A DNA stretch of 64,000 nucleotides from a virus: positions 10,109 through 74,108 of IMG/VR virus record IMGVR_UViG_3300006175_000004; one strand, given 5' to 3'. Under the pieces are notes generated by a model, which was given only the letters and a program-made list of their open reading frames with translations, was not told the DNA's origin and made no database searches. A program made the position numbers and the translations under genes. Numbering within the stretch: position 1 is the first letter of the stretch; the number at the start of each line of letters is the position of its first letter. Positions 7,609-51,206 of the stretch are shown piece by piece.

Positions 7609-8849
7609 AACCACAAGCAATCGACCCGCGCATGATCAAAGCGCGGACATCGCTGATTCACCGCCACCCATTTTGGGGAAGCTTGGCGTTGCATCTGCAA
7701 ATCGTGGAAGACCCATCGGTGGAGACAATGGCTGTCGATGGGAAGCATTTGTTCTACGCCCCGAAGTTTCTGGACACATTGACGCAGGCGCAAATCGAAG
7801 CGGTGATCGCGCACGAAGTTTGCCACTGCGCTTACAAGCACCATGTCCGCAGGGGCAGCCGCGATTTTGAATTGTGGAACGAAGCTTGCGACCACCCGAT
7901 CAATTTGGACTTACAACGAGCGGGCTTTGATTTGCCGAAGCCCAATCTGTGCGATCCTCAATATGATCGGATGTCGGCTGAAGAAGTCTTCGCCATCATT
8001 GCCAAGAAGCAGGCCGAGCAACAGAAGCAGCAGGGCCAAGGCCAAGGGCAAGGGCAGGGCGCGGCAGGAAGCCCGCAGCCGGGCGGGCAACAGCCGGGGC
8101 AATCCAAGCCCGGCCAAGGGCAAGGACAGCCCGGAAAGGGCACGATTCGCGGCCCTGCGGGCATGGGAAAGGTGCTTGACGCGGCCCCTGAGCATGATCA
8201 GGCGGCAACGGCCAAGGAAGAAGCCGAGTGGGACGTTCTGGTTCGCCAAGCCCTGTCGGTGGAAGCGGGTCGCAATGCCGGAAAGCTGCCCGGCAATTTG
8301 GCCCGCATGGCTGAAGCGGTGAAGCAACGGCCCGTCGATTGGCGGGAAGTATTGCACCGCTTCGTCGATAGCCGAGCATCGTGGGACTATTCTTGGTCCC
8401 ATCCCAACAAGCGCATGTTGGGTGGCGGGATCATTTTCCCCGGCACCGAGCCTGATGGGATCGGCAAGCTTGCGGTGGTCCGCGATACTTCAGGATCGAT
8501 TGACCGTCGATTGGCGGGCCGCTTCAATAACGAACTGCAAGCCATCCTAGACGATGGATCGGTATCTGAAGTGGTGATGATCGATTGCGACGCTTCCGTT
8601 CGCGATGTTCGTCATTTTCAGATGGGCGATCAGATCAGCATGGAAGTCAAAGGCGGCGGTGGCACCCGCTTCTCACCCGCCTTGGAATGGTTGGCACAAA
8701 AGGAAACCGACATTGTTGCGATCATCTATCTGACCGATCTGGATTGTCGCGACTTCGGACCTGAACCGAATGTGCCGACCCTGTGGGCTGCCTATGGTCC
8801 GAAGGCCCGCAACAGTGTGCCCTTCGGGGAAAAGATCATTCTAATATGA
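7605..8849 (+). CDS. DUF2201-type metallopeptidase-VWA protein
   Basis: HEVCH (HExxH), Q/G-rich linker, MIDAS-like DTSGS, GGGGTRF, IYLTD. Confidence 0.9.
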   Translation: MKPQAIDPRMIKARTSLIHRHPFWGSLALHLQIVEDPSVETMAVDGKHLFYAPKFLDTLTQAQIEAVIAHEVCHCAYKHHVRRGSRDFELWNEACDHPINLDLQRAGFDLPKPNLCDPQYDRMSAEEVFAIIAKKQAEQQKQQGQGQGQGQGAAGSPQPGGQQPGQSKPGQGQGQPGKGTIRGPAGMGKVLDAAPEHDQAATAKEEAEWDVLVRQALSVEAGRNAGKLPGNLARMAEAVKQRPVDWREVLHRFVDSRASWDYSWSHPNKRMLGGGIIFPGTEPDGIGKLAVVRDTSGSIDRRLAGRFNNELQAILDDGSVSEVVMIDCDASVRDVRHFQMGDQISMEVKGGGGTRFSPALEWLAQKETDIVAIIYLTDLDCRDFGPEPNVPTLWAAYGPKARNSVPFGEKIILI

Positions 8850-8863
8850 AAGGAAGGTAACCA

Positions 8864-9067
8864 ATGACTATTTTTGAAGCCCACAAAAAGTGGCGGGATG
8901 CTTACGCTGCTTGGGTGGACGAAGCCCACGTTGTGCTTGGTCCAAGTGCCCCGGTGAAAGCAATGCAAGGTGAGCCGGGCACCGAATTGCGTCGTTTGTA
9001 TGATGAGGTTGAGGCGGCAGCCAATGCGTATGACGCTGTCGCTCGTAGCATTCCTTTGTCTGACTGA
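8864..9067 (+). CDS. hypothetical protein
   Basis: RBS AAGGAAGG. Confidence 0.7.
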   Translation: MTIFEAHKKWRDAYAAWVDEAHVVLGPSAPVKAMQGEPGTELRRLYDEVEAAANAYDAVARSIPLSD

Positions 9068-9103
9068 AGTTTGGAAACATCGAAACCAAAAAGAAGGCAC
9101 CCA

Positions 9104-9457
9104 ATGCGTAAAGTTCACGTGACGTTTGAATGCTTGGAGAATGTGCTCGGGCCAATGCTGCTCGATATCACCGAGCGACCAAATACCCGGATCATCCAAA
9201 TGAAGGCGATCAGCGAACGACCGCCGACAGAAAACAAGCCCGCCAAAAACAAAACCGGTCTTTCCACAAGGGAAGTGATCGAAGACCTCGCCATGAAGAA
9301 GAAGGGAAAGGGCTTCACCATATCGGAAGCGAAAGCGGCCTTGGAAAATCATGGCTTCTCCAAGTCCACCGTCTACCCGCTGATCACAGACATGAAGAAG
9401 GCGGGAATAATCGGTGACGGTATCGACAACAACTACATTTCACTGATGGGGAAATAA
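9104..9457 (+). CDS. putative winged-HTH DNA-binding protein
   Basis: C-terminal FTISEAKAALENHGFSKSTVYPLITDMKKAGII; TGGAAACATC motif upstream. Confidence 0.55.
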   Translation: MRKVHVTFECLENVLGPMLLDITERPNTRIIQMKAISERPPTENKPAKNKTGLSTREVIEDLAMKKKGKGFTISEAKAALENHGFSKSTVYPLITDMKKAGIIGDGIDNNYISLMGK

Positions 9458-9700
9458 ATGACACGGAAGATCAACGGCTTTCCGATCTACCGGACCTATT
9501 CCTTCACGGGGCAGGACCCGGCTGTGCGCGAAACGCTGAACTGCGTCAAGGACAAAAAGGATTCATCCAAGAAGTCCGGGGTCGCCCGCAGCACCTACCG
9601 CAATTGGGATACCCGCAAAACCCGCCGCCCGCAATTCGCAACCCTTCAGGCCACCGCCATCGCCAACGGCAAGCGGTGGAAGCTTGGCGATGATGATTGA
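9458..9700 (+). CDS. XRE/Cro-like HTH protein
   Basis: SGVARSTYRNW...RPQFATLQA. Confidence 0.6.
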   Translation: MTRKINGFPIYRTYSFTGQDPAVRETLNCVKDKKDSSKKSGVARSTYRNWDTRKTRRPQFATLQATAIANGKRWKLGDDD

Positions 9701-9713
9701 AAGGATCACGAAC

Positions 9714-9971
9714 ATGGAAACGGAAACCAAAAAAGTGACGATGGAGTTCGGTCGGCACGATCTTGAAACCATCAAGCGGGCTCTGTCGATTGCCAGCACC
9801 AAGATCAGCGCCGACGTCCGGCGCAAGCAGAAGGCCGCGCAAGAATCCAGGCGCAATCTGCGGCCCGGTGCTATCGCATCGTTGGCGATGGAAGGCGGTG
9901 ACTACATAGGGCTGTTTAAGCTGATCGACGCGGTGCTCACCGCCGCATCGAAAAAGGAAGGGGGTGTGTGA
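9714..9971 (+). CDS. hypothetical protein
   Basis: AAAGGATC RBS; METETKKV... Confidence 0.7.
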   Translation: METETKKVTMEFGRHDLETIKRALSIASTKISADVRRKQKAAQESRRNLRPGAIASLAMEGGDYIGLFKLIDAVLTAASKKEGGV

Positions 9972-10288
9972 TGGAACGCAGGCACCCCCGCTGTTCCCCT
10001 GACCATTGGCGCGAATTGCTGGTGGCCATGAATCGGTCCGACGACGAAGTGACTGTCAGCGCGGAAGCCTTCAAGGACGTGGCCAATTGCCACGTCCAGA
10101 AGGGCGGAAGCATCAGCCGTGACATGGTCCTTCAGGCCGGGCGATCCCGAACTGTGCTGCGCCGGAATCAGCTTTGGACTCTGGTTCAGGAGCACGGGAA
10201 GGTTTGTGAAATGAAGGGCGGGTCTGACAAGCCCGCCGACTTCCATACCACCAACGAGCTAATCCGGGCGGGGATCATTAGGCCATGA
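9971..10288 (+). CDS. hypothetical protein
   Basis: TGATG coupling. Confidence 0.65.
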   Translation: MERRHPRCSPDHWRELLVAMNRSDDEVTVSAEAFKDVANCHVQKGGSISRDMVLQAGRSRTVLRRNQLWTLVQEHGKVCEMKGGSDKPADFHTTNELIRAGIIRP

Positions 10289-11157
10289 TGCACGCCCACC
10301 GAGTGATCGAAGCCATGCGGAAGCGAACGCCCGGCACGCATCCGCCGTTGCGGGAATATCTGTCGGAAGAAAAGATCGACACATTTGCCGATCTGATCGA
10401 AGCAGCCGAGAAGTTTGACTTCGGCCCTTTGGTTCTGGAAAGAAAGGACGACACAATCCTGCCGGGCGGGTATGGCTACTCCCTGCCTGATTTCACAGAC
10501 ACCGAATGGGAATTGTGGGGCTTGGGCCTGATCCCGCTTCCTGCCAATCCAAGCTGGTATGAATATCAGCTTGGTACTTCCCGATCCGGGCTGCTTGTTT
10601 ATACCCATGAAGAAAGGTGGTGCGTCGTTCGGGCTGAATTGGCCCCATCGATGTATTGGGATGCGGTCATGGTTTCCATTCCCCGGAAATCAGCAGCCCA
10701 CCAAACTTATACACAATGCGAAATGCACTCCGACTGGATGGCCCCGCAGCAGCTTACTGAAGAACAGAAGCGAACCTTGTGGGGCGATCAAGCCCACATA
10801 TCGATCTATCTGACGCTGATGCTTGGATCGAAGACCACAGAAAAGAAGAATGTGCCTGCCCCGGCCTTCATCAATAAGGCACGAGCCAAGAAGGGGAAGC
10901 CCTTGCTGCCGGAGCATACCGTGGTGCGCATTGTGCCCCATCAATACATCACGGAAAGCCAGCGCGAAGCAGGCCGCACCCATGCAAGCCCACGCTTGCA
11001 TTGGCGTCGGTCCCATTTGCGGGTCTATGATCGGGCCACCCCGGCTTCTACATTCGTGGAAGGGAAGGGATGGTGCGTTGCTATTCCCCGTTGCTTGGTC
11101 GGCGTTGCTGACCAAGGCGAAGTCCACCACGAGTATTTTGTGAGGAATGAGACATGA
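10285..11157 (+). CDS. conserved phage hypothetical protein
   Basis: 290 aa; C-terminal SPRLHWRRSHLR motif typical of a phage family. Confidence 0.7.
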   Translation: MMHAHRVIEAMRKRTPGTHPPLREYLSEEKIDTFADLIEAAEKFDFGPLVLERKDDTILPGGYGYSLPDFTDTEWELWGLGLIPLPANPSWYEYQLGTSRSGLLVYTHEERWCVVRAELAPSMYWDAVMVSIPRKSAAHQTYTQCEMHSDWMAPQQLTEEQKRTLWGDQAHISIYLTLMLGSKTTEKKNVPAPAFINKARAKKGKPLLPEHTVVRIVPHQYITESQREAGRTHASPRLHWRRSHLRVYDRATPASTFVEGKGWCVAIPRCLVGVADQGEVHHEYFVRNET

Positions 11158-11633
11158 CCAAACCCAAGAGCATGGAGAAGTGGCAACCGCTGCGTGAGTC
11201 AGCGGTTGTCGGACCACCACCTGAAGATTTGATCAAGGCGACAATGGACCAATTGAAGATCGACAGAGACGAAGCAATCAAGACCCTCAACGATGACGAA
11301 AAGAATGTGCGATATTTCGTCAATGATCTGTATCAGGTGCAGCTCCGCGTTGCGGATTACCCGTTGCTGCAACTGAACATTCGCCGCAGGGACGGAAAGC
11401 CCATCTTCCGTGATTGGCGGCACTTCCAGCAGATCAAGAATGAAATTGTCGGCCCGGATTGCGAAGCGGTCGAGCTCTATCCTGCAGAAGAGCGCTTGGT
11501 CGATCAGGGGAACAAATATCACCTGTGGGCGGTGGCTGATCCGAAGTTCCGCTTCCCCTTCGGGTGGAAAACACGAACAGTGGATTACAGTTCGTATGAC
11601 TCATCTATAAGCGGACTTCGGCAAAGGGCCTGA
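11154..11633 (+). CDS. conserved phage hypothetical protein
   Basis: DWRHFQQIKNE...AVELYPAEERLVD...YHLW motif. Confidence 0.75.
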   Translation: MTKPKSMEKWQPLRESAVVGPPPEDLIKATMDQLKIDRDEAIKTLNDDEKNVRYFVNDLYQVQLRVADYPLLQLNIRRRDGKPIFRDWRHFQQIKNEIVGPDCEAVELYPAEERLVDQGNKYHLWAVADPKFRFPFGWKTRTVDYSSYDSSISGLRQRA

Positions 11634-39015: not shown

Positions 39016-40038
39016 TTACTGATACTGCATCGAGACTCCGGTGATTGCTTCCGGACGAACGCCCCAACCCGATGTCGAACGAAGTTCGCTGACAATATCA
39101 ATCGCGCCACCGGGGATCGGTGTCGGGATTTCTTTTGGCGCAGCCATGTCGTTCAATTGCAGCGTGCAAGCTTCCAAGCCCGGCGACAGCTTGGCGAACT
39201 CGTTGGTATTGATCTTCCCGCCTGCGGGCTTCTGCACTTCAGGCATGACGATGAGGACCAAATCGGTGTTGCCGCCGAGTCCCTGATTGATCAGGGTATC
39301 GTCATAGCACCACAAGATTTCATCCTTGTTGTCGCTTGCCACGGATTTGACCACGCCTGCGGTCGAAGTCGTGCCTGCGCCGGGCCGCTGGAATTGCACA
39401 AGCTGAACCACGTTGTATTCGAACGTGCCAAGCGTGCGCTGCGGTCCAAGGATGGTGAACTTCCTGCCGATCCCCAATTGATTGGTGCGGGATTTGATCT
39501 GCTGGATCTGCGACAAAATGAACAACGCCATTTGCCCGTTGTCATAGGTGACGACGGTATCGTTGTTGTTCGAATCAGGCGGCAGCGGGATTGCCGTCGA
39601 ACCATTGGTATTGACAATGCCTTCGCCGTTCGCGGGGTTCATCCCGTAAAGCAGCATATTCCGAAGAAGCTGGAAGTGGCCTTGGCGCATACCCAACCGC
39701 TGGGCTTCGACGATGGAAACATTCCACCGGCTCATCGCAGCGGTATCATGGTGGTCGTATTCAGCCCGGACCCGAAGCAAGTAGGACGCGGTGCTGATCA
39801 TCGACATCGCAATGCCGACCGATGGCAGTTCATTGTAAGCCGATTGCCCGCCCGCCATCTTCGTGCGGATATCCGCGCGGCGGATGTAAGCAACCAAATC
39901 ACCTTCGCCCAAGCGGGTCAGCGGTTCGCCACCCCCAAGAAGATCGAAAGCCCCGGAAGCCTGCGAGTAAGGCAGCAGGATTTCCGGCATTGTGTATGAC
40001 GGGTTGAGCGTCACATAAGCCGGGGCAATGTTACCCAT
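39016..40038 (-). CDS. major capsid protein
   Basis: 340 aa, strong AAAGGA RBS, follows protease and decoration genes; C-terminal RSTSGWGVRPEA. Confidence 0.85.
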   Translation of the reverse strand: MGNIAPAYVTLNPSYTMPEILLPYSQASGAFDLLGGGEPLTRLGEGDLVAYIRRADIRTKMAGGQSAYNELPSVGIAMSMISTASYLLRVRAEYDHHDTAAMSRWNVSIVEAQRLGMRQGHFQLLRNMLLYGMNPANGEGIVNTNGSTAIPLPPDSNNNDTVVTYDNGQMALFILSQIQQIKSRTNQLGIGRKFTILGPQRTLGTFEYNVVQLVQFQRPGAGTTSTAGVVKSVASDNKDEILWCYDDTLINQGLGGNTDLVLIVMPEVQKPAGGKINTNEFAKLSPGLEACTLQLNDMAAPKEIPTPIPGGAIDIVSELRSTSGWGVRPEAITGVSMQYQ

Positions 40039-42008: not shown

Positions 42009-43010
42009 TGTACTGTCTCCTTTCACGAGAGTAGCCACACCGGCTGGATCGCCACCTTTGTCCCAAACACCCTTCTCGCAGATGGCGATATGATCGAGCA
42101 GAGAAGGTTTACCTTCAATCAGTAATTGTTCACCTGTATCCAATTCCACTTTCGTATTGACGCTTGGATCGCGGAACACCACCGCAGGCGACGTGGAAAG
42201 CTGTGTGTTCCGCATTTCCTTGATTGCATCTGCATCGTAGATTTTAGCGATGCCCCAAACTTCGCTCGCTTCCGGCTTCAGGTACGGCAGGAAGACTGAT
42301 CCAACAACGCGGTCGTTGAATTCCTTGCTGTTCAACATCGCGCTTTTGGGATGCTCGAAGATTACCGACAAGCCCATGCACCGCTGCACGAAGTCTTCAT
42401 TCATGTACAGCGATGGATCGCGCCACACATATTCGTTGTGCTTGTGGCGATAGGCCATTCCGGTGCCGGTAATGCGGATATTGAACAGCCACATGTTGTC
42501 ATAGGGCTGCGGGCTGACCAGAAGCCCGGACATCATCGCGCGGGCGACAGCGAGTTCGTCCATGCCAAGGCGGTCGAGCGCAATCTGACAGCCGGGGTGC
42601 ATCGGCTGCGGTGGCTGATCGATGGGTGCCCAAGCCCATCCGACATGTTCGCCATTGACCGTAGGCGTGAATTCTTCCTTCACCCGCTGAATGAATGTGG
42701 TGAAGTCGACTTCTTCCCCCGGCGCTGCTTCGCCCGGTAGCAAGGCAACGCTGCCATTCAGAGGTGCAGGGGCAAGCGGGGTTGGATCACGGGGCCTGAT
42801 TTGCCGCGTCCATTCGGCCCGTGGCCCTGCGGGTATCTTGCCACATTCTTCGATGGCTTCGCGCTCAGCTGCTTCCAGCTCGGTCTCGTCGCCTTCGATA
42901 TGGCCACCGGGGAAGCACCAGAAGCCGGGGTAATCACCGCCCGGCCCGCGCTTCAGATACAGGGCCTTGCGATCCTGCGTGATGAAAAGAATTCCGGCAG
43001 CGCGGATCAT
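41067..43010 (-). CDS. NUDIX hydrolase - DUF2213 prohead protease - scaffold fusion
   Basis: Nudix box GGHIEGDETELEAAEREAIEECG; protease-like EHP...LSTSP...DHIAICEKG; K/D-rich scaffold region. Confidence 0.85.
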   Translation of the reverse strand: MIRAAGILFITQDRKALYLKRGPGGDYPGFWCFPGGHIEGDETELEAAEREAIEECGKIPAGPRAEWTRQIRPRDPTPLAPAPLNGSVALLPGEAAPGEEVDFTTFIQRVKEEFTPTVNGEHVGWAWAPIDQPPQPMHPGCQIALDRLGMDELAVARAMMSGLLVSPQPYDNMWLFNIRITGTGMAYRHKHNEYVWRDPSLYMNEDFVQRCMGLSVIFEHPKSAMLNSKEFNDRVVGSVFLPYLKPEASEVWGIAKIYDADAIKEMRNTQLSTSPAVVFRDPSVNTKVELDTGEQLLIEGKPSLLDHIAICEKGVWDKGGDPAGVATLVKGDSTVTDEERKAAEAKVRADAEGGDKLDKILTGLDSLAKGRADDRQRFDEYAAKVDSMSSRMDAFEAKKADDDDDDEEEEKKEDKKADKKDAAKKDDFPEDMKGKKEDKKDDDDDDDDDEDEEEDKKVAVADKKKGRKDAKKDDDDDDDARKDSVDVKAMKREIADLKRRMPLQMSDADFRKRAEVQAKADTVFQAFGDSAPRPLDGETLEAYKRRLATALKVHSPAWSKVDVAAIADAAFDVAEGQIYADAFKAADNPVDLPEDELRQITRTDHATGQRTISFVGKHSFVRDFKAPVQKVDWDKGGFLTPSAQQGR

Positions 43011-44299
43011 CAGGATACCACTTTCACTTTGCCTTCGGGGATCATGTAGTTGGTATTTTCAGATGGGGCCGATTGGATTTGCAGGTGGCCGTCGCGGGCA
43101 GACAGAACCCGACCGGTTTCGCCGTGGCCACGAATGCCCGGCGCATTGATCTTCACCTGCTTGCCGATCATCGGGTGCTTGTCAGCATCGGTCCTCGTCT
43201 TTGACCTAGGCGGAACAACCGTCACTGATTTGACGTTGCTCTGCGCCTTCATTTCCTTCTCCATGTGACGAGCTTCACTTTCGTGAGTGTAAACATAGGT
43301 GTCAAAGTCACCGGTCTTCCAATAGACTTTGACTTCCCAATAGCTGGAAGCATCACCACGAACGGCCTTCTTCTTGTCAGGGCCTTCCATCATCTTCGCG
43401 ATGTCGCGGTCGATGTCGTCGATCTTCGCAGCCAATTCCCCGGCCTTGGCAGGATTGCCTTCCGATTTTATCAAGCGGTCAAGCTGGCTCTGAAGCTCGG
43501 TACGCAAGGCCCGCAGGCGAACCAGTTCACCTGCTGTGCTGTCGGCCTTTATTTCGCTGACATATATTCCGGTGCAATCCGGGTGCTTTCGGTGGGCAAT
43601 CTTCGCCGCTTCATCTTTGGTAGCTGCCTTGATGTCCAAATCGGCCACGTGCTTTGACGATTGCGGGGTCTTGAATACTTGTACGTGCCATTCCCGCTCG
43701 GCTGCATCAGCCTTCGTGCCCTGATTGGGTTCACGATATGATGCAGCAATGGAATCGATCTTCACCATTGCTTCATCCATCAGGCACGCGTCCATCTTGG
43801 CGCAGATCGCGTCAAGCATCGATGAAGCGGGCGATACCGCGCTGTCGCTGCGCGGTTCCCACTCAAGGGCACCTTCGTCGTTTTCGACATAGGCCCCTTT
43901 GGTCTGTTTGGCCTTGGCGACCGCTTCCTTGAAGCTGTCGATCTGCCCGGAGATTTTACGGCCGTCTTTCACGACGAAGAAGGTCTCCGGCACATTCTGC
44001 TCAATGCGTGAGTCGGCCCGATTTGCCCCTTCCAATTCCTTGGTCAGATCACGGACGTTCTGCTCGAGCTTTTCCTTGCTCGGGATATTGATGGTGTTGA
44101 ACCGACCGCCCGCCAGCAACTTCTTGGCTTCGGCAAGTTCTTGTTGGATCGCTTCACGTGGCCTGCCTGCATCCGCCCGATCCACGCCCGATATCTTCCC
44201 GGCATTCTTGGAAGCGTAGAAGACTTGCTTCCCCTTGTCGCCACCGTATTCCTTTTCCATCGCGGCAAGGATTTCCTCACCTTTTGCTGTCAACGGCAT
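43010..44299 (-). CDS. modular head-associated protein, putative polyprotein
   Basis: ~55-aa modules separated by RADA/RADS/RSDS/KADA/KADS/RGDA/RTDA; TGATG-coupled to the protease gene. Confidence 0.75.
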   Translation of the reverse strand: MPLTAKGEEILAAMEKEYGGDKGKQVFYASKNAGKISGVDRADAGRPREAIQQELAEAKKLLAGGRFNTINIPSKEKLEQNVRDLTKELEGANRADSRIEQNVPETFFVVKDGRKISGQIDSFKEAVAKAKQTKGAYVENDEGALEWEPRSDSAVSPASSMLDAICAKMDACLMDEAMVKIDSIAASYREPNQGTKADAAEREWHVQVFKTPQSSKHVADLDIKAATKDEAAKIAHRKHPDCTGIYVSEIKADSTAGELVRLRALRTELQSQLDRLIKSEGNPAKAGELAAKIDDIDRDIAKMMEGPDKKKAVRGDASSYWEVKVYWKTGDFDTYVYTHESEARHMEKEMKAQSNVKSVTVVPPRSKTRTDADKHPMIGKQVKINAPGIRGHGETGRVLSARDGHLQIQSAPSENTNYMIPEGKVKVVS

Positions 44300-44311: not shown

Positions 44312-44650
44312 TTATTGCAGGATGATCGCGTTGTTGATGACAGCGGTGCTGCCGGAAGCATTGGCAAGCTTGATCTTGAACCACCCGAACAGCTTCCCGT
44401 CCGCGATGGCCTTGTTGGTCAGGGTATTGGCGCTGATCGCCTGCGTGGTTTCTTGCACAAGAATATCCCCGGCAGGATCGGCGTATTGATCGATGGTCAG
44501 CGTCAGGTCGTGGGTGGCCTTCGCCCAAACCGAAATGTTCGCGCCGTGGCTGATTATGATACCGGAGTCATAGGTGACACCGGTAAGAATTTGTGCCGGG
44601 AATGGATTGAGCGGCGGAACCGGGCCTGCAGCATTCGGGTACGGAACCAT
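44312..44650 (-). CDS. hypothetical beta-rich protein
   Basis: AAGGGA RBS, 112 aa. Confidence 0.7.
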   Translation of the reverse strand: MVPYPNAAGPVPPLNPFPAQILTGVTYDSGIIISHGANISVWAKATHDLTLTIDQYADPAGDILVQETTQAISANTLTNKAIADGKLFGWFKIKLANASGSTAVINNAIILQ

Positions 44651-44662
44651 TGGTTGTCCCTT

Positions 44663-45055
44663 CTATTGAATGGGCGGAAATTTCAGGCGAAGGCGAATTA
44701 TGTTGACCTGATCCTTCAGGGCCTGGATCGTTTTCTGCTCTGTCTTGTTCGGCCTTGGCCCTGCGTCCGCTTGCGCCTGCTGCAACTGGAACTGGTACCA
44801 TTCCAAGTCGCGCTGATCGCTGCGGTTTTCGGCTGCATCCAAACGCTGAAGAATTCGGTCGTTATTCTGCTGAAGTGTTTGTAGCTGCTTGCCAAGCTGC
44901 ACCAAGGCAATTTCGCCGGGGATTGGCAGCGGGCCGCTCTGAATGATCCCGTCCACAATTGGTGCAGCCCATGACACCACAGTAACACCCATCATCAGCC
45001 CGCCACCGACAGCAGCGACCCACTTTGCCAACCGGATGATCTGAATTCTGTCCAT
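44663..45055 (-). CDS. membrane-anchored coiled-coil protein
   Basis: N-terminal TM followed by Q-rich coiled coil. Confidence 0.65.
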   Translation of the reverse strand: MDRIQIIRLAKWVAAVGGGLMMGVTVVSWAAPIVDGIIQSGPLPIPGEIALVQLGKQLQTLQQNNDRILQRLDAAENRSDQRDLEWYQFQLQQAQADAGPRPNKTEQKTIQALKDQVNIIRLRLKFPPIQ

Positions 45056-45081
45056 GACTGCACCAATCGCTTTAGGATGAT

Positions 45082-45345
45082 TTATTTCTTCCCGGCCTTC
45101 TTCGCCTTCCATGCCTTCTGTTTGGCGATGGCTGCGTCGCCTGCCGGATGACCCGCAGGAGCGTGCTCGTAGATCGTCAGCGATCTACCATCTGACATTG
45201 CCAGTTGGTAGGCGTCGATGATCCCTTCCTGATCGGTCATCAGCATGTTGGTGCCGTGAGCAATCGATTCCTGCAGCTTGTCCAAATCCAAGCTGCCGTC
45301 CGGCGCGTGCGGGTCGTGATTCCATGTGGTAGGTTTATGTGCCAT
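45082..45345 (-). CDS. hypothetical protein
   Basis: AAAGGAG RBS. Confidence 0.7.
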   Translation of the reverse strand: MAHKPTTWNHDPHAPDGSLDLDKLQESIAHGTNMLMTDQEGIIDAYQLAMSDGRSLTIYEHAPAGHPAGDAAIAKQKAWKAKKAGKK

Positions 45346-45634
45346 TGGGTGCTCCTTTGCTTTGATCGCCGGTTTCCAATTCGGTGGGCGATATCACCGG
45401 TTCCATTCCATTGCGGACCCATTCCAAGGCTGCATCCCGCGCGGCGATTGCGTGGGTCACCTCTTCCTTGAAATGCTGCACGCTATTGATCGCCGGGTGC
45501 CTGACGAACAGCAGCATCACAAGAGTGCCTACCCGCTCACCAAAGCCTTTGTGGATTGCACCTTCGTAGTAAGCGATCCGCCTGATTTTCAACTCGCGCT
45601 GTGCCGCAGCGGCAAGGTCTTCAGAAGCCGTCAC
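45335..45634 (-). CDS. hypothetical protein
   Basis: Overlap-coupled ORF. Confidence 0.6.
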   Translation of the reverse strand: MTASEDLAAAAQRELKIRRIAYYEGAIHKGFGERVGTLVMLLFVRHPAINSVQHFKEEVTHAIAARDAALEWVRNGMEPVISPTELETGDQSKGAPNGT

Positions 45635-46485
45635 AATCCAGCCACCATTTCGCGCACCTTGGCCTGCGCTTCCTTCAGGCTCTTCTCGCCTTTCGCGGTC
45701 AGCATCGACTTCGGCAGATCGCGCACATGGTAGACATATTGGCCGTAGCAGCGACAGAATGGTTCTTCAGCGGGCTGCGTGATCTTGTCGAGAAACCCCG
45801 CGTTGCCTTGCCGCATCAATCCCTGCTCGAGAGCCCAGTTGCCCCGAATGGTATAGACCAGCATGTCGCGCTCCTTGTGGTCTTCGCGATAATTGTAGCC
45901 CGGCTGCCGCCAATGGCTGTGCCAGATCATCGCAAGCGCGTTGTTGTCTTTCGCCACGATGTCATTGATTGCCGATGTCAGCTTGTGGCCCTGATCAATC
46001 AGCACGCGGCGTTCTTCAAATTTGGTCCGCGCCAGCGACTTGCGTATATCCTGCTTGGCTGCGGGCTTCTGACCGGCCACTTTCGTTCCGCCCTTGGGGA
46101 TCGATGTGGCCCAACCACTGAAGCGTTGCAGCGTCTTCTCGATGGATTGCTGACGGTTCAATCTGATGAGATTGGCCGATGCCAGTATCCGGCGATCCAA
46201 TTCCGCCCGAAGATGAGGCCGCAACCGTTCAATGGTAAATCTTCCGACCCCGGCATGATACCGAGCGATGCCGCCCTTCTCGACCATGCGGGTATAAATC
46301 GCGATCAACCCGCCCCGCAGCATGGCCTCGAGCACATGGGGCTGGGTGAATTCCTTTTCGGCTGCTTCCTTGATCTTCTTTTCCCACATCACCAATCGTT
46401 CAACGGTGTCGAAGCCGTGGGTGAGCAAGTCATCCACGGCTTCAGTGACAACGTCGTAGAAGGAATTACCCTTCTGTGATGGCAT
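45631..46485 (-). CDS. MuF/SPP1 gp7-like head morphogenesis protein
   Basis: IDQGHKL, WHSHWR...REDHKERD, PAEEPFCRC. Confidence 0.85.
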   Translation of the reverse strand: MPSQKGNSFYDVVTEAVDDLLTHGFDTVERLVMWEKKIKEAAEKEFTQPHVLEAMLRGGLIAIYTRMVEKGGIARYHAGVGRFTIERLRPHLRAELDRRILASANLIRLNRQQSIEKTLQRFSGWATSIPKGGTKVAGQKPAAKQDIRKSLARTKFEERRVLIDQGHKLTSAINDIVAKDNNALAMIWHSHWRQPGYNYREDHKERDMLVYTIRGNWALEQGLMRQGNAGFLDKITQPAEEPFCRCYGQYVYHVRDLPKSMLTAKGEKSLKEAQAKVREMVAGL

Positions 46486-47818: not shown

Positions 47819-49402
47819 CTAGGCAGCGCGATCCATTTTCTTGCTTTGACGCAGCAACTTGGTCAACACATTGACCATTGCAGAGTCAGCCCTTGGCAGC
47901 TTCGGCTGATGCTCTTTCGGTGCCGCCTGCTTGCCCGGCTGCTTGTCGCCGTCTTCTTCGTCATCGCCTTCGCCGTCATCTTCGTCGTCGCTCTGATCAT
48001 TCCCGCCACCGCCACCGTTCTGCATCATTGCGGCCTGCGGGTCGAAGTTCTCCAAGGCGTCGAAGTCGAGCATCAATTCGTTCGGGAACAGCAGCTTCAA
48101 TTCGTTGAAGTTGTCCGCCAGCCATTGAATGATGATGTTGCGATTGTCGGGATCGACCGCAGGAAGCAGGACTTCGACCGCTTCGATCATCGCATCCAAT
48201 CGGGTCTTGTCGACCTTCTGCTGTTCCGATGGCGGTTCGGTCAGCAGCGAAGGCCATTCAAACGCGAACGTGTTCACCCAATCGTAGAAGGCTTCGGTAT
48301 AGGATTTGGTTTCGTATTCAGGGAAGTCAGCCTTCAGCGTTTCGTAGAATTCCGGGGTCCACGCCTTGTACATGCAGACCTTGTCACAGAACTGATACAG
48401 GGGCCGCAGCCATGTGCGAACCCCGTCAATGTATTTGGCGATGTTCTTGGCGTCTTCGGTGCCTTCCGCCATCCCGCCGACCATTGTCTCATTTTCCAGA
48501 AGCTTCGCGGGCATGTCAGCAGCGGTCGCGATGTTCTTCAGGATATTGGTGCGCACCACCTGATAGGGGCCGTCGAGATTGCGGAAGTTCAGGCTTTCGA
48601 TTGCATCGTCCGGGCCGATAGAAATGACCCCGCCCGTCGATGCTTCCCTGATCATTCCGCGCTTCTGGCCCCACACCAGTTGCATCATGTTGTTGATGAT
48701 CGACCCCGGTGCTTTGATCTTGGCAATCAGAACGCCGACCTTCACCGTGACCAAGTCATCGGTCAGAAGCGTTTGCAGAAACGACTTCAGCGGGAACAGC
48801 GCTCGCTGGTAGACGCTTCTGCCGACGAAGCCGAAGGCCGATTGTGTGAACGCGATATAGATCGGCTCTTCGTTCAGCACCACAACGCTTCGGCTGCGAT
48901 GGAATGCGCTGCCCTGAACGCTGACCTGATCGGGTTTCATAAAGTCGATTGACAGCGGGTTCTGGTTCAGCACCAGCGATCCGGCTGTATTCAATGGATC
49001 GTAGACGTTGAAGCTGGTCTTCAGCTTCGACAGCTCTTTGTAATCGAGCGGCCTGCCGGGTGGCACGCCTTCCGCCATCAGGGTCAGCGTGGCGATCCCG
49101 TAGACGCGCGACAGGGATGCGACATTCTTGATTGCGCCATCGCAGCCAAGCTTGGTCCACATTTCCTCAAAGGCATTCTTCACGCGGTCTTGCGGCGATT
49201 TGCTGACCACAATTTCGCGCTTCTGCGATTGGGCCATTTTGATCGGGGCTTCCGCCATCTTGGCCCCAAGCGGGTGGTACAGGTAGATCGTCTTGCAAAG
49301 CTGATACGACGGATCGTCGCCCGGCTGTATATCTTCGGCCTGCAACAGATCGGACAACTGGTTGCCCAGCGACGATCCATTGATGCTGATGCTTGCTGGC
49401 AT
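47819..49402 (-). CDS. portal protein (DUF1073-like)
   Basis: 527 aa after TerL; SRVYG, FHRSR, GFVGRSV, IATAADMPAKLL. Confidence 0.9.
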   Translation of the reverse strand: MPASISINGSSLGNQLSDLLQAEDIQPGDDPSYQLCKTIYLYHPLGAKMAEAPIKMAQSQKREIVVSKSPQDRVKNAFEEMWTKLGCDGAIKNVASLSRVYGIATLTLMAEGVPPGRPLDYKELSKLKTSFNVYDPLNTAGSLVLNQNPLSIDFMKPDQVSVQGSAFHRSRSVVVLNEEPIYIAFTQSAFGFVGRSVYQRALFPLKSFLQTLLTDDLVTVKVGVLIAKIKAPGSIINNMMQLVWGQKRGMIREASTGGVISIGPDDAIESLNFRNLDGPYQVVRTNILKNIATAADMPAKLLENETMVGGMAEGTEDAKNIAKYIDGVRTWLRPLYQFCDKVCMYKAWTPEFYETLKADFPEYETKSYTEAFYDWVNTFAFEWPSLLTEPPSEQQKVDKTRLDAMIEAVEVLLPAVDPDNRNIIIQWLADNFNELKLLFPNELMLDFDALENFDPQAAMMQNGGGGGNDQSDDEDDGEGDDEEDGDKQPGKQAAPKEHQPKLPRADSAMVNVLTKLLRQSKKMDRAA

Positions 49403-49883: not shown

Positions 49884-51206
49884 TCAGTATCCCGACGAGT
49901 CACCCAACGCCAACGATATGCCATAGCAGAAGCAATCCAACAGATCGTCGGCCCGCTTGTTCGCATCCGGATCGGCAACCCTGAAGCCCAATATCTGCGA
50001 CATCATTTGATTGCGGGTGCTGCCCTTGAACGTGGTCACCTTGTCATAGGCTTGCTCGGTCACCTTGACCAAACCCTGATAGACATAACCGCTGACATTG
50101 ATCGCCCGCTCGTCCTTGCCCTTGCTCACCAGCTCGGTGTCAATGGCTTGGGCTTTCCATCCCCGCTTCACCGCTTGCTGAAGCAGGATCGTGCCGCTGT
50201 TTGTATCTTCGATGAATGCACCCAACGATCCAGCGCGGGCCTCGTATTCCTTTGCGAAGGATTCCAGCAGCCGGAACACATTGGGCAGCCATGCTTCAAG
50301 GCTTGCGCCTTCGATCTGTACAAGGTCCCAATCCAGAATGTAGAGTGTGTTCCCCTTCGATTTGGTGAAACCGAAATAGATCACGCCGGTGCCGTCATTC
50401 TCCTTTCCGGTCTTGATGGCCGTATCAATGACCGCGAAGACGCTGTCGATCCGCTTGGGACAGACCGCAGGCTTCCCATTGATGAGCAGCTTGTCCTTGC
50501 CGAAGAAGGCGATACCCGACCAGTCGACGAATTCGGCCAAGTATTCCTGCTGATAAACCAACGGGTGGTTTTCAGCTTCCAGCTCCTTGAAAATGACTTC
50601 CCTGCGGGCCAGCCACTCGGCTTCGGTCTCATGGGGATCGCGGATCGGGATGAGGGGATTGTCGAACGTGGGCGCGTGGAATTCTACAAAGCCCAGCTTC
50701 TTCTCATTGCAAATCTTGTAAAGGAAATTGTCGGGATCGTTTCCGTTGGTGTTCGACAGAACAATCGCGCTGCCCTGATAATCCAACAGCGTGGGCCTGA
50801 TCGATTTCTCCCAAATCCCCAACATATTGTTCTTGGTGAATGCACCTTCGTCGATGATCACCTTGTGATAGTGCCGGGATCGCCCGGCTGACTCGTTGTC
50901 CAATGTCCAGAAATCAATCCGGCCACCGCCTATGGTACGAATGACCCCTTCGACCTTGCTGCTACTGGTCCGGATCGGCAGAAGCATGGCAGCCAGATCG
51001 TTGAAGGCTTCCGATGATTTCTTGTAATCAGGGGCGAACCATCCGATGCATTCCTGATTGATTGCGCCATCAGCGGCAATCACTTCACCGAATGTGGTCT
51101 TCCCCCATCGCCTTCCGCACCTGATGGCTTTGAAGCGGGCCGGGTAATCGAATGCTGATACCTGCCCGTCATGCAGGGTCGGCAGTGACACATGGACATC
51201 AGGCAT
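49884..51206 (-). CDS. terL: terminase large subunit
   Basis: CGRRWGKT, VIIDEGAF, QQEYLAEF, RNase H-like IDTA...DDLLD. Confidence 0.95.
   Translation of the reverse strand: MPDVHVSLPTLHDGQVSAFDYPARFKAIRCGRRWGKTTFGEVIAADGAINQECIGWFAPDYKKSSEAFNDLAAMLLPIRTSSSKVEGVIRTIGGGRIDFWTLDNESAGRSRHYHKVIIDEGAFTKNNMLGIWEKSIRPTLLDYQGSAIVLSNTNGNDPDNFLYKICNEKKLGFVEFHAPTFDNPLIPIRDPHETEAEWLARREVIFKELEAENHPLVYQQEYLAEFVDWSGIAFFGKDKLLINGKPAVCPKRIDSVFAVIDTAIKTGKENDGTGVIYFGFTKSKGNTLYILDWDLVQIEGASLEAWLPNVFRLLESFAKEYEARAGSLGAFIEDTNSGTILLQQAVKRGWKAQAIDTELVSKGKDERAINVSGYVYQGLVKVTEQAYDKVTTFKGSTRNQMMSQILGFRVADPDANKRADDLLDCFCYGISLALGDSSGY

Follow-up and report, generated by a model that had tools for sequence, protein, structure and literature searches.

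The window analysed here is a 64,000 nt stretch of viral DNA (positions 10,109 to 74,108 of IMG/VR record IMGVR_UViG_3300006175_000004, a complete 74 kb record with terminal repeats from an uncultured virus). The head gene module on its minus strand includes an uninterrupted open reading frame (ORF) of 429 aa, hereafter the polyprotein, with a ribosome-binding site (AAGGGG) 9 nt upstream of the ATG. The TGA stop codon (43012-43010) shares one base with the ATG (43010-43008) of the downstream gene, and the TGATG coupling to a prohead protease gene reported in a preliminary description of this DNA was thus evident. The downstream gene encodes a 647 aa protein that joins a NUDIX domain, a DUF2213-like capsid maturation protease and an acidic scaffold region. 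The preliminary description read the polyprotein as a string of small proteins, separated by a periodic [RK]-x-D-[AS] motif, that are recruited with the scaffold, cut apart by the protease and injected with the DNA. We have re-examined that reading by comparing the polyprotein, its neighbours and its relatives.

A chain of eight units with regularly spaced joints

The [RK]xD[AS] motif occurs in the polyprotein at residues 41, 94, 150, 168, 180, 196, 251, 314 and 369, exactly where it had been listed. The earlier estimate of about one chance occurrence was also accurate, as 20,000 composition-preserving shuffles of the sequence contained a mean of 0.94 motifs and never reached nine. At seven sites the x residue is small, and these sites are separated by 53, 56, 46, 55, 63 and 55 aa; the regularity is real, since seven randomly placed sites would have all gaps within 46-63 aa about five times in a million. 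The remaining two motifs, K-M-D-A and K-I-D-S, have a hydrophobic x residue and sit inside the fourth unit. In a census of the whole window, 16 of the 36 motifs fell within the polyprotein and the adjoining protease-scaffold protein, which together represent 5 % of the coding residues.

The AlphaFold2 model of the polyprotein had a mean predicted local distance difference test score (pLDDT) of 78 and a predicted template modelling score of 0.33, as expected of eight confidently modelled units whose placement relative to each other is not fixed (Table 1). Of the seven junctions, four fall where pLDDT drops below 50, two others are at unit borders and one is in a helix. The AlphaFold borders and a module-by-module BLAST analysis uphold the view of a modular protein in which the motifs are the joints. 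The fourth unit, a single long helix, had been likened to a scaffold helix, and sequence comparison detected the same similarity: such helices are present in the scaffold regions of the protease family and in many proteins that share the first unit of the polyprotein (the N-domain). The eighth unit is modelled as a five-stranded barrel, for which Foldseek returned KOW5 of Spt5 (8p4e_Z; template modelling score 0.88 by target, root mean square deviation 1.5 Å, 55 columns), together with 2e70 and NdhS (6khi_S), at E-values of 1e-3 to 5e-2. The model is therefore consistent with the KOW/SH3-like fold previously suggested; Pfam, searched with unit 8 to an E-value of 10, gave no hit, the KOW model included.

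Two elements of the earlier description require revision. The N-terminal unit had been called basic, but it contains six Lys/Arg and six Asp/Glu residues. The segments had also been described as unlike each other, which does not hold for units 5 and 7 (both beta-beta-alpha-beta) or for units 2 and 6 (both helical hairpins). Other structural searches were unrevealing. A PDB sequence search with the whole protein and with an N-domain profile gave chance-level rows only, and Foldseek against viral models found only uncharacterized small phage proteins. Generic matches to the unit 6 hairpin dominated a structure search with the model of residues 199-371, the outcome of which applies to that hairpin and not to the beta-beta-alpha-beta units.

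Along the minus strand, the head module reads large terminase, portal, MuF-like protein, four small ORFs, polyprotein, protease-scaffold, a phrog_6268 protein and capsid protein. The four small ORFs (112, 149, 87 and 99 aa, at 44312-45634 on the minus strand) separate the MuF-like gene from the polyprotein gene, and the 149 aa product has a hydrophobic segment. The whole block from the small ORFs to the polyprotein looks like an insertion, because the cultured relatives PdC23 and QDWS have the MuF gene directly before the protease gene.

Table 1. Features of the polyprotein, the adjoining genes and the related loci with an alternative joint sequence (positions refer to the window unless a locus is named)
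Feature	Position	Strand	Basis or remark
Polyprotein coding sequence, 429 aa	43010..44299	minus	uninterrupted ORF
Unit 1 (aa 1-40): conserved viral N-domain, two-helix hairpin and conserved extended tail ending G-V-D	44180..44299	minus	pLDDT >92
Junction 1, R-A-D-A (aa 41-44)	44168..44179	minus	unit 1 border
Unit 2 (aa 44-96): helical hairpin	44012..44170	minus	AlphaFold
Junction 2, R-A-D-S (aa 94-97)	44009..44020	minus	motif
Unit 3 (aa 97-152): small alpha/beta unit	43844..44011	minus	low to moderate pLDDT
Junction 3, R-S-D-S (aa 150-153)	43841..43852	minus	pLDDT <50 at 153-155
Unit 4 (aa 153-198): one long helix, scaffold-helix-like	43706..43843	minus	AlphaFold, sequence comparison
Junction 4, K-A-D-A (aa 196-199)	43703..43714	minus	pLDDT <50 at 188-198
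Unit 5 (aa 199-253): beta-beta-alpha-beta mini-domain	43541..43705	minus	pLDDT 84-92
Junction 5, K-A-D-S (aa 251-254)	43538..43549	minus	between strand 244-249 and helix 255-278
Unit 6 (aa 254-316): helical hairpin	43352..43540	minus	pLDDT ~95
Junction 6, R-G-D-A (aa 314-317)	43349..43360	minus	pLDDT <50 at 310-317
Unit 7 (aa 317-371): beta-beta-alpha-beta mini-domain	43187..43351	minus	pLDDT 86-93
Junction 7, R-T-D-A (aa 369-372)	43184..43195	minus	pLDDT <50 at 367-372
Unit 8 (aa 372-429): five-stranded KOW/SH3-like barrel (modelled)	43013..43186	minus	AlphaFold, Foldseek
NUDIX + DUF2213-like capsid maturation protease + acidic scaffold, 647 aa	41067..43010	minus	profile matches
Scaffold linker of the protease protein (aa 330-484): all seven motifs and scaffold helix	41559..42023	minus	motif census, comparison
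Large terminase	49884-51206	minus	head module
Portal coding sequence	47819-49402	minus	head module
Portal R-A-D-S, 24 aa from portal C-terminus, after acidic low-complexity stretch	47882..47893	minus	motif census
MuF-like head-morphogenesis protein	45631-46485	minus	head module
302 aa protein (phrog_6268)	between protease-scaffold and major capsid genes	minus	head module
Major capsid protein	39016-40038	minus	head module
T-K-D joint loci, L091	3941-7033, 7126-8556		
T-K-D joint loci, L092	693-3314, 8735-10531		

Exchange of units and the conserved N-domain

Relatives of the polyprotein exchange whole units at the joints. In the following, P-numbers designate related proteins from the sequence search, and L-numbers the genomic loci compared. 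Module-by-module BLAST showed that units 3, 4, 5, 6 and 8 recur in P0001, P0002, P0042, P0044 and P0046, whilst no relative was found for units 2 and 7. Each recurring unit begins directly after xD, and the alignments that reach the end of a unit stop at the next xD. Unit 3 in P0046 (66 % identity) is flanked by KAD| and RGD|, and unit 5 in P0044 (65 % identity) has KAD| at both sides. In P0001 (74 % identity) and P0002, unit 4 immediately follows GVD| or RAD|; in P0001 (94 %) and P0002 (63 %), unit 6 immediately follows KAD|; and in P0001 (95 %) and P0042 (60 %), unit 8 immediately follows KAD| or KED|. The order of units is 1-4-X-6-8-Y in P0001 and 1-4-6-Z-W-Y in P0002, and the units that P0001 has in common with the polyprotein are 74-95 % identical. 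Module swapping with retention of the joints, which the preliminary description had proposed to look for, is thus seen among these relatives.

Outside the N-domain, few relatives can be recognized. With residues 44-429, a word-index search found P0001 only and a scan of IMG/VR found no relative. Phages that encode the same 647 aa protease protein (46-58 % identical) have N-domain proteins of 147, 204 and 321 aa, the tails of which have no detectable similarity to the polyprotein. Together, the reshuffling of modules and the dissimilarity of tails indicate that the locus is hypervariable through exchange of whole modules.

The precision of this exchange raises the question of whether the motif is simply a recombination joint at the DNA level, with no role in the protein. 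However, the nine sites are written in differing codons, such as CGG GCG GAT GCA, AAG GCC GAC AGC and AGG ACC GAT GCT, and share no DNA word. The variation of the codons places the constraint on the protein rather than on the DNA, and we regard a pure recombination joint as highly improbable.

Two further features of the relatives should be recorded. Residues 256-293 of P0072 and the middle module of P0002 weakly resemble ribosome modulation factor (Rmf) or CrpP and have R-G-D joints at their borders; the match of the Rmf-like module to NCBIfam PRK14563 (E-value 2e-4) is under the curated cutoff. Additionally, P0042, P0046, P0124, L006 and L011 have a helical segment of about 30 aa, often directly behind the N-domain, whose closing E-P-E-H-K-x-D leads directly into a new module or the protease domain.

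The preliminary description had not noticed that the N-domain itself (residues 1-40) is a highly conserved and newly recognized viral domain. About 900 protein clusters match the polyprotein at E-values of 1e-3 or better, nearly all of them through residues 1-42 only. Phages that are not otherwise related share the domain at 70-85 % identity, and 14 of its positions do not vary among 24 sequences. It matches at least 574 IMG/VR stretches, yet it was found in just one of 50,697 deposited phage genomes. It had no match in Pfam, PHROGs, NCBIfam or PDB, and the ESM Atlas gave only unnamed viral clusters.

Four arrangements of the N-domain were seen. It can be a free ORF of 44-60 aa beside portal genes, one example being in a T7-like genome; it can precede a variable tail; it can be joined to the N-terminus of a DUF2213 protease, either with a NUDIX domain or without one; and it can lie at an internal position in a polyprotein. 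Its end is nearly always G-V-D, followed most often by Ser or Ala. From these sequence patterns, the N-domain appears to behave as a self-contained unit and not as a leader peptide. A role as a mere targeting leader was rejected, as the domain often stands alone without cargo. A role as a DUF2213-specific propeptide or inhibitor was likewise rejected, because 27 of 57 informative loci have no detectable DUF2213 protease; the T7-like genome, in which the free N-domain ORF adjoins the portal gene, also counts against it. A different architecture was seen in L051 (8001-13886), where a protein of 1962 aa starts with the N-domain and continues as a low-complexity chain extremely rich in Gly, Cys and Ala, with no Pfam match and no R-x-D-A.

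The DUF2213-like protease and its predicted cleavage sites

The 647 aa product of the downstream gene matched NUDIX (E-value 3e-15) and the phrog_530 head maturation protease family (E-value 8e-5). Aligned against a DUF2213 alignment that included gp33 of phage TLS, it gave an hhalign probability of 99.4 % (E-value 4.5e-21) over 78 columns only, a region that spans the conserved His at aa 220 and Ser at aa 272/274. Its relatives P0026 and P0031 carry PF09979, and homologues with PF09979 are 44-51 % identical to it. The kinship to DUF2213 that had been assumed is therefore sound at the profile–profile level, though Pfam itself is silent. The protein has seven [RK]xD[AS] motifs, every one of them in the linker/scaffold region behind the protease. 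A further R-A-D-S near the C-terminus of the portal protein (Table 1) suggests that the portal tail may be trimmed by the protease too.

Domains of the NUDIX, topoisomerase IB or ADP-ribosyltransferase type occur in related DUF2213 proteins. L043 (8469-11528) encodes a 1020 aa protein with DUF2213, topoisomerase IB and ADP-ribosyltransferase domains, and L009 (8429-11062) an 878 aa protein with NUDIX and ADP-ribosyltransferase domains. A short tag of the form E-x-(E/D)-H-P-R...G-x-F, with a glycine run behind it, stands ahead of the cargo in L043 (twice in 8469-11528), P0027, P0029, P0019 and P0036. The polyprotein lacks this tag.

Capsid proteins of cultured DUF2213 phages offer an experimental view of the processing site. 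The Edman N-terminus of the mature TLS capsid protein is ASDMGIW (PMC11447400), which follows K-N-D27 in the translated capsid gene (L085, 15087-16061). The TLS study inferred the loss of 45 aa from the capsid protein (PMC11447400), but in the deposited gene its Edman sequence begins at residue 28, so that the segment removed, which ends in K-N-D, is of 27 aa. TLS gp33 is a DUF2213 protein (E-value 4e-23), the scaffold half of which contains no fewer than eight KxD[ASG] sites. The cryo-electron microscopy model of the T1 capsid begins at residue 27 of 319 (PMC11945409), and the capsid protein of the T1-like phage Sfin-1 has K-Q-D26|A27. Capsid proteins of other Drexlerviridae keep K-x-D|[AG] at this place (K-A-D|A in JK06, K-L-D|A in Snook and K-A-D|G in NBD2). 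For E217, the capsid protein is visible from residue 66, and cleavage was suggested by the authors (PMC10329688); the PB1 orthologue has A-M-D64|S65. In three lineages of DUF2213 phages, then, the capsid protein is processed, or seems to be, between an Asp and the small residue that follows it, a rule that is not stated in any of the three studies (PMC11447400, PMC11945409, PMC10329688). The resulting pattern (basic residue or Ala at P3, Asp at P1 and Ala, Ser or Gly at P1') is matched by all seven [RK]-small-D-[AS] junctions of the polyprotein.

The motif also characterizes the wider family. A scan of 137 non-redundant tails of N-domain proteins, with no pattern set beforehand, returned RxDA as the top enriched frequent gapped pattern (119 observed against 14.5 expected, 8-fold). 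In these tails, sites with a small x residue occupy linker positions at a median spacing of 56 aa, and sites with a hydrophobic x residue are found inside the helix that the scaffold regions of the protease proteins also contain.

The presence of the motif goes together with the presence of the protease. Among 80 IMG/VR loci retrieved with the N-domain profile, 26 had a DUF2213-like protease nearby; their N-domain proteins were all longer than 80 aa and contained 27 motifs in 2859 tail residues. At 27 loci without such a protease there were no motifs in 1709 tail residues, and 18 of the proteins were of 80 aa or less. The association of length with protease presence gave a Fisher p of 1e-7, and the probability that all 27 motifs fall in one group by chance was 3e-6, values that somewhat overstate the evidence as the loci are not phylogenetically independent and include several near-duplicates.

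Furthermore, the joints and the protease appear to change together. A second joint dialect, (S)K-T-K-D, was found in long polyproteins (up to 1030 aa) with an internal N-domain (P0037, P0151, P0098, L091 and L092), and the DUF2213 protease-scaffold proteins of the same contigs have a single T-K-D|A/S site at the border between the acidic region and the C-domain. In PB1, the A-x-D|S form is present both in the capsid protein and in the protease-scaffold.

These findings bear on the alternative that the polyprotein is never cut, and is instead an internal head or scaffold-associated protein built as beads on a string, with [RK]xD[AS] as a favoured linker or helix cap. Asp-Ala/Ser can cap helices, and several junctions do precede helices. 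Yet such a structural preference fits poorly with the lack of the motif in N-domain proteins at loci without a DUF2213 protease, with its correspondence to capsid processing points in TLS, T1 and PB1/E217, and with linker dialects that shift with the site in the same phage's protease-scaffold. It should also be noted that the free form of unit 1 ends just past the same point. We consider an uncut chain unlikely, and cleavage at the junctions, the best-supported step of our model, probable.

Proposed processing and packaging of the polyprotein

We propose that the polyprotein is a substrate of the phage's own DUF2213-type capsid maturation protease, packaged in the head and cut into mini-proteins, and we put the probability of this reading at roughly 0.6. 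In this scheme, the polyprotein would be translated together with the protease-scaffold protein by virtue of the one-base gene overlap. The scaffold-like helix of unit 4 would pair with the scaffold, probably drawing the chain into the procapsid. The protease would then cut after the Asp of every [RK]-small-D|[AS] site to liberate eight mini-proteins of 40-63 aa, namely the N-domain, two helical hairpins, the scaffold-like helix, three small alpha/beta units and the KOW-like barrel. As the units are independent and exchangeable, the locus would operate as a cassette, its content varying even among close relatives. The modularity, joints and swapping in the preliminary reading stand, as do the DUF2213 kinship and the processing of DUF2213-phage capsid proteins after such a site; the cleavage of the polyprotein itself, its packaging, the retention of fragments, their injection and a host-directed or anti-defence role are inferred.

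Packaging is suggested by where the gene lies, by its translational coupling, by the helix that resembles the scaffold and by how prohead proteases generally work. Proteases of the HK97 and T4 types become active inside the assembled procapsid. This rule and the features of the locus speak against processing in the cytoplasm without packaging, a means by which one ORF would give several small late proteins in equal amounts: the gene lies in the head module, is coupled to the protease-scaffold gene and encodes a scaffold-like helix. That free N-domain ORFs exist in phages without a DUF2213 protease, and unit 1 can hence be made without processing, is compatible with a cytoplasmic route, which we nonetheless judge to be improbable.

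Several observations weigh against the proposed packaging and cleavage. The phage is known solely as an uncultured metagenomic virus record. Its capsid protein has no [RK]xD[AS] site in the window census, so there is no internal positive control. The Pfam DUF2213 model does not score the 647 aa protein even at E up to 1, marking it as a divergent relative, and to this must be added the short profile alignment and the relatedness of the loci in the covariation set. Junction 2 is the only junction that AlphaFold puts inside a helix (75-102); at the place of this junction, the homologue of unit 3 in P0046 starts directly after K-A-D. Pfam, PHROGs and NCBIfam contain no family for the whole protein or for any unit, and no host target can be assigned. 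Finally, the cultured protease relatives Shewanella QDWS, Pantoea PdC23 and Klebsiella Chronis have no such polyprotein, implying that it is dispensable for assembly.

This last point is equally a difficulty for the view that the chain is cut but that its pieces serve assembly only, as an accessory scaffold or core filler whose fragments exit with the scaffold peptides at DNA entry, since these relatives build heads without it. Unit 4 does copy a scaffold helix, the motif density of the polyprotein is similar to that of the scaffold region and no module matches an effector family, all as expected of an assembly factor. However, individual units have remained folded domains with 60-95 % identity throughout their reshuffling, which points to selection on each unit and not on bulk, and relatives contain modules weakly resembling Rmf and use the same route to load enzymes. 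A role limited to assembly therefore seems unlikely to us, though less so than an uncut chain.

The cargo logic that we propose, of proteins loaded with the scaffold and trimmed by the protease, is T4-like. In T4, the non-essential internal proteins IPI-III and Alt are loaded with the scaffold, trimmed by gp21 and delivered with the DNA, and IPI* is an anti-restriction protein. The systems differ in that T4 gp21 is a Peptidase S77 that cuts after Glu in [LI]-x-E, whereas the protease here is DUF2213-like and is proposed to cut after Asp in [RK]-x-D|[AS], and in that T4 uses separate genes with a leader of about 10 aa in place of eight units in one chain. Searches for T4-type features found no S77 match in Pfam or PHROGs, and the N-terminus of the polyprotein is a 40 aa domain ending in G-V-D with no [LI]-x-E leader. 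In phages phiKZ and SPN3US, the head proteases gp175 and gp245, respectively, cut inner-body and ejection proteins repeatedly at a short consensus, and the products are retained in the head (PMC5694885, PMC10052503, PMC7411985). This multi-cut logic is shared, but the phages concerned are giant ones, their T4-type proteases act at Glu-specific sites, and the proteins that are cut are large and not strings of 40-63 aa units. The T1-like phages (TLS gp33/gp36) and PB1/E217 have the same protease family and the same Asp|small-residue site, at the capsid protein N-terminus and in the scaffold half, and lack both the polyprotein and the N-domain.

The polyvalent proteins of phages and conjugative elements combine many unrelated domains in one chain and are encoded beside head genes; packaging, processing and injection have been predicted for them (Iyer et al. 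2017, PMC5512222). They are large, with enzymatic domains and usually a peptidase of their own, in contrast to the mini-domains and the capsid protease acting in trans that we envisage. No polyvalent-protein domain was detected in the polyprotein with Pfam, PHROG or NCBIfam; its head-module context and multi-unit chain do fit that class. In the literature, we found no description of the Asp rule, of the one-chain mini-domain design or of the N-domain; studies of Xanthomonas Xop411 and of P1 deal with proteases of other families.

Host-directed roles for the units are hinted at by the conservation of each fold under shuffling, the weak Rmf-like module and the enzyme domains of related DUF2213 proteins. 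A more far-reaching and decidedly tentative view is that DUF2213 phages possess a hypervariable cassette, in which the capsid protease frees head-packed mini-proteins and enzymes that are injected ahead of the DNA for host takeover or anti-defence, with lineage-specific dialects of Asp-ending joints and with the N-domain as the constant member, directed at a conserved target.

DUF2213 is a very large, little-studied family of capsid maturation proteases, with members in T1-like coliphages and in therapeutic Pseudomonas phages of the PB1/E217 type. If our reading is correct, the family would cut between Asp and a small residue that follows it, the P3 residue differing by lineage, and both the mature virion proteins and the packaged cargo of these phages would become predictable from sequence alone. 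It would also mean that a tailed dsDNA phage uses a polyprotein strategy, with a single ORF supplying eight small proteins at equal levels. Combined with a cut site, the scaffold-like helix could be used as a tag-and-release handle to load foreign proteins into capsids. The roughly 900 clusters, most of which share the N-domain, are likely to include virion-delivered factors, and represent candidates for host takeover or counter-defence.

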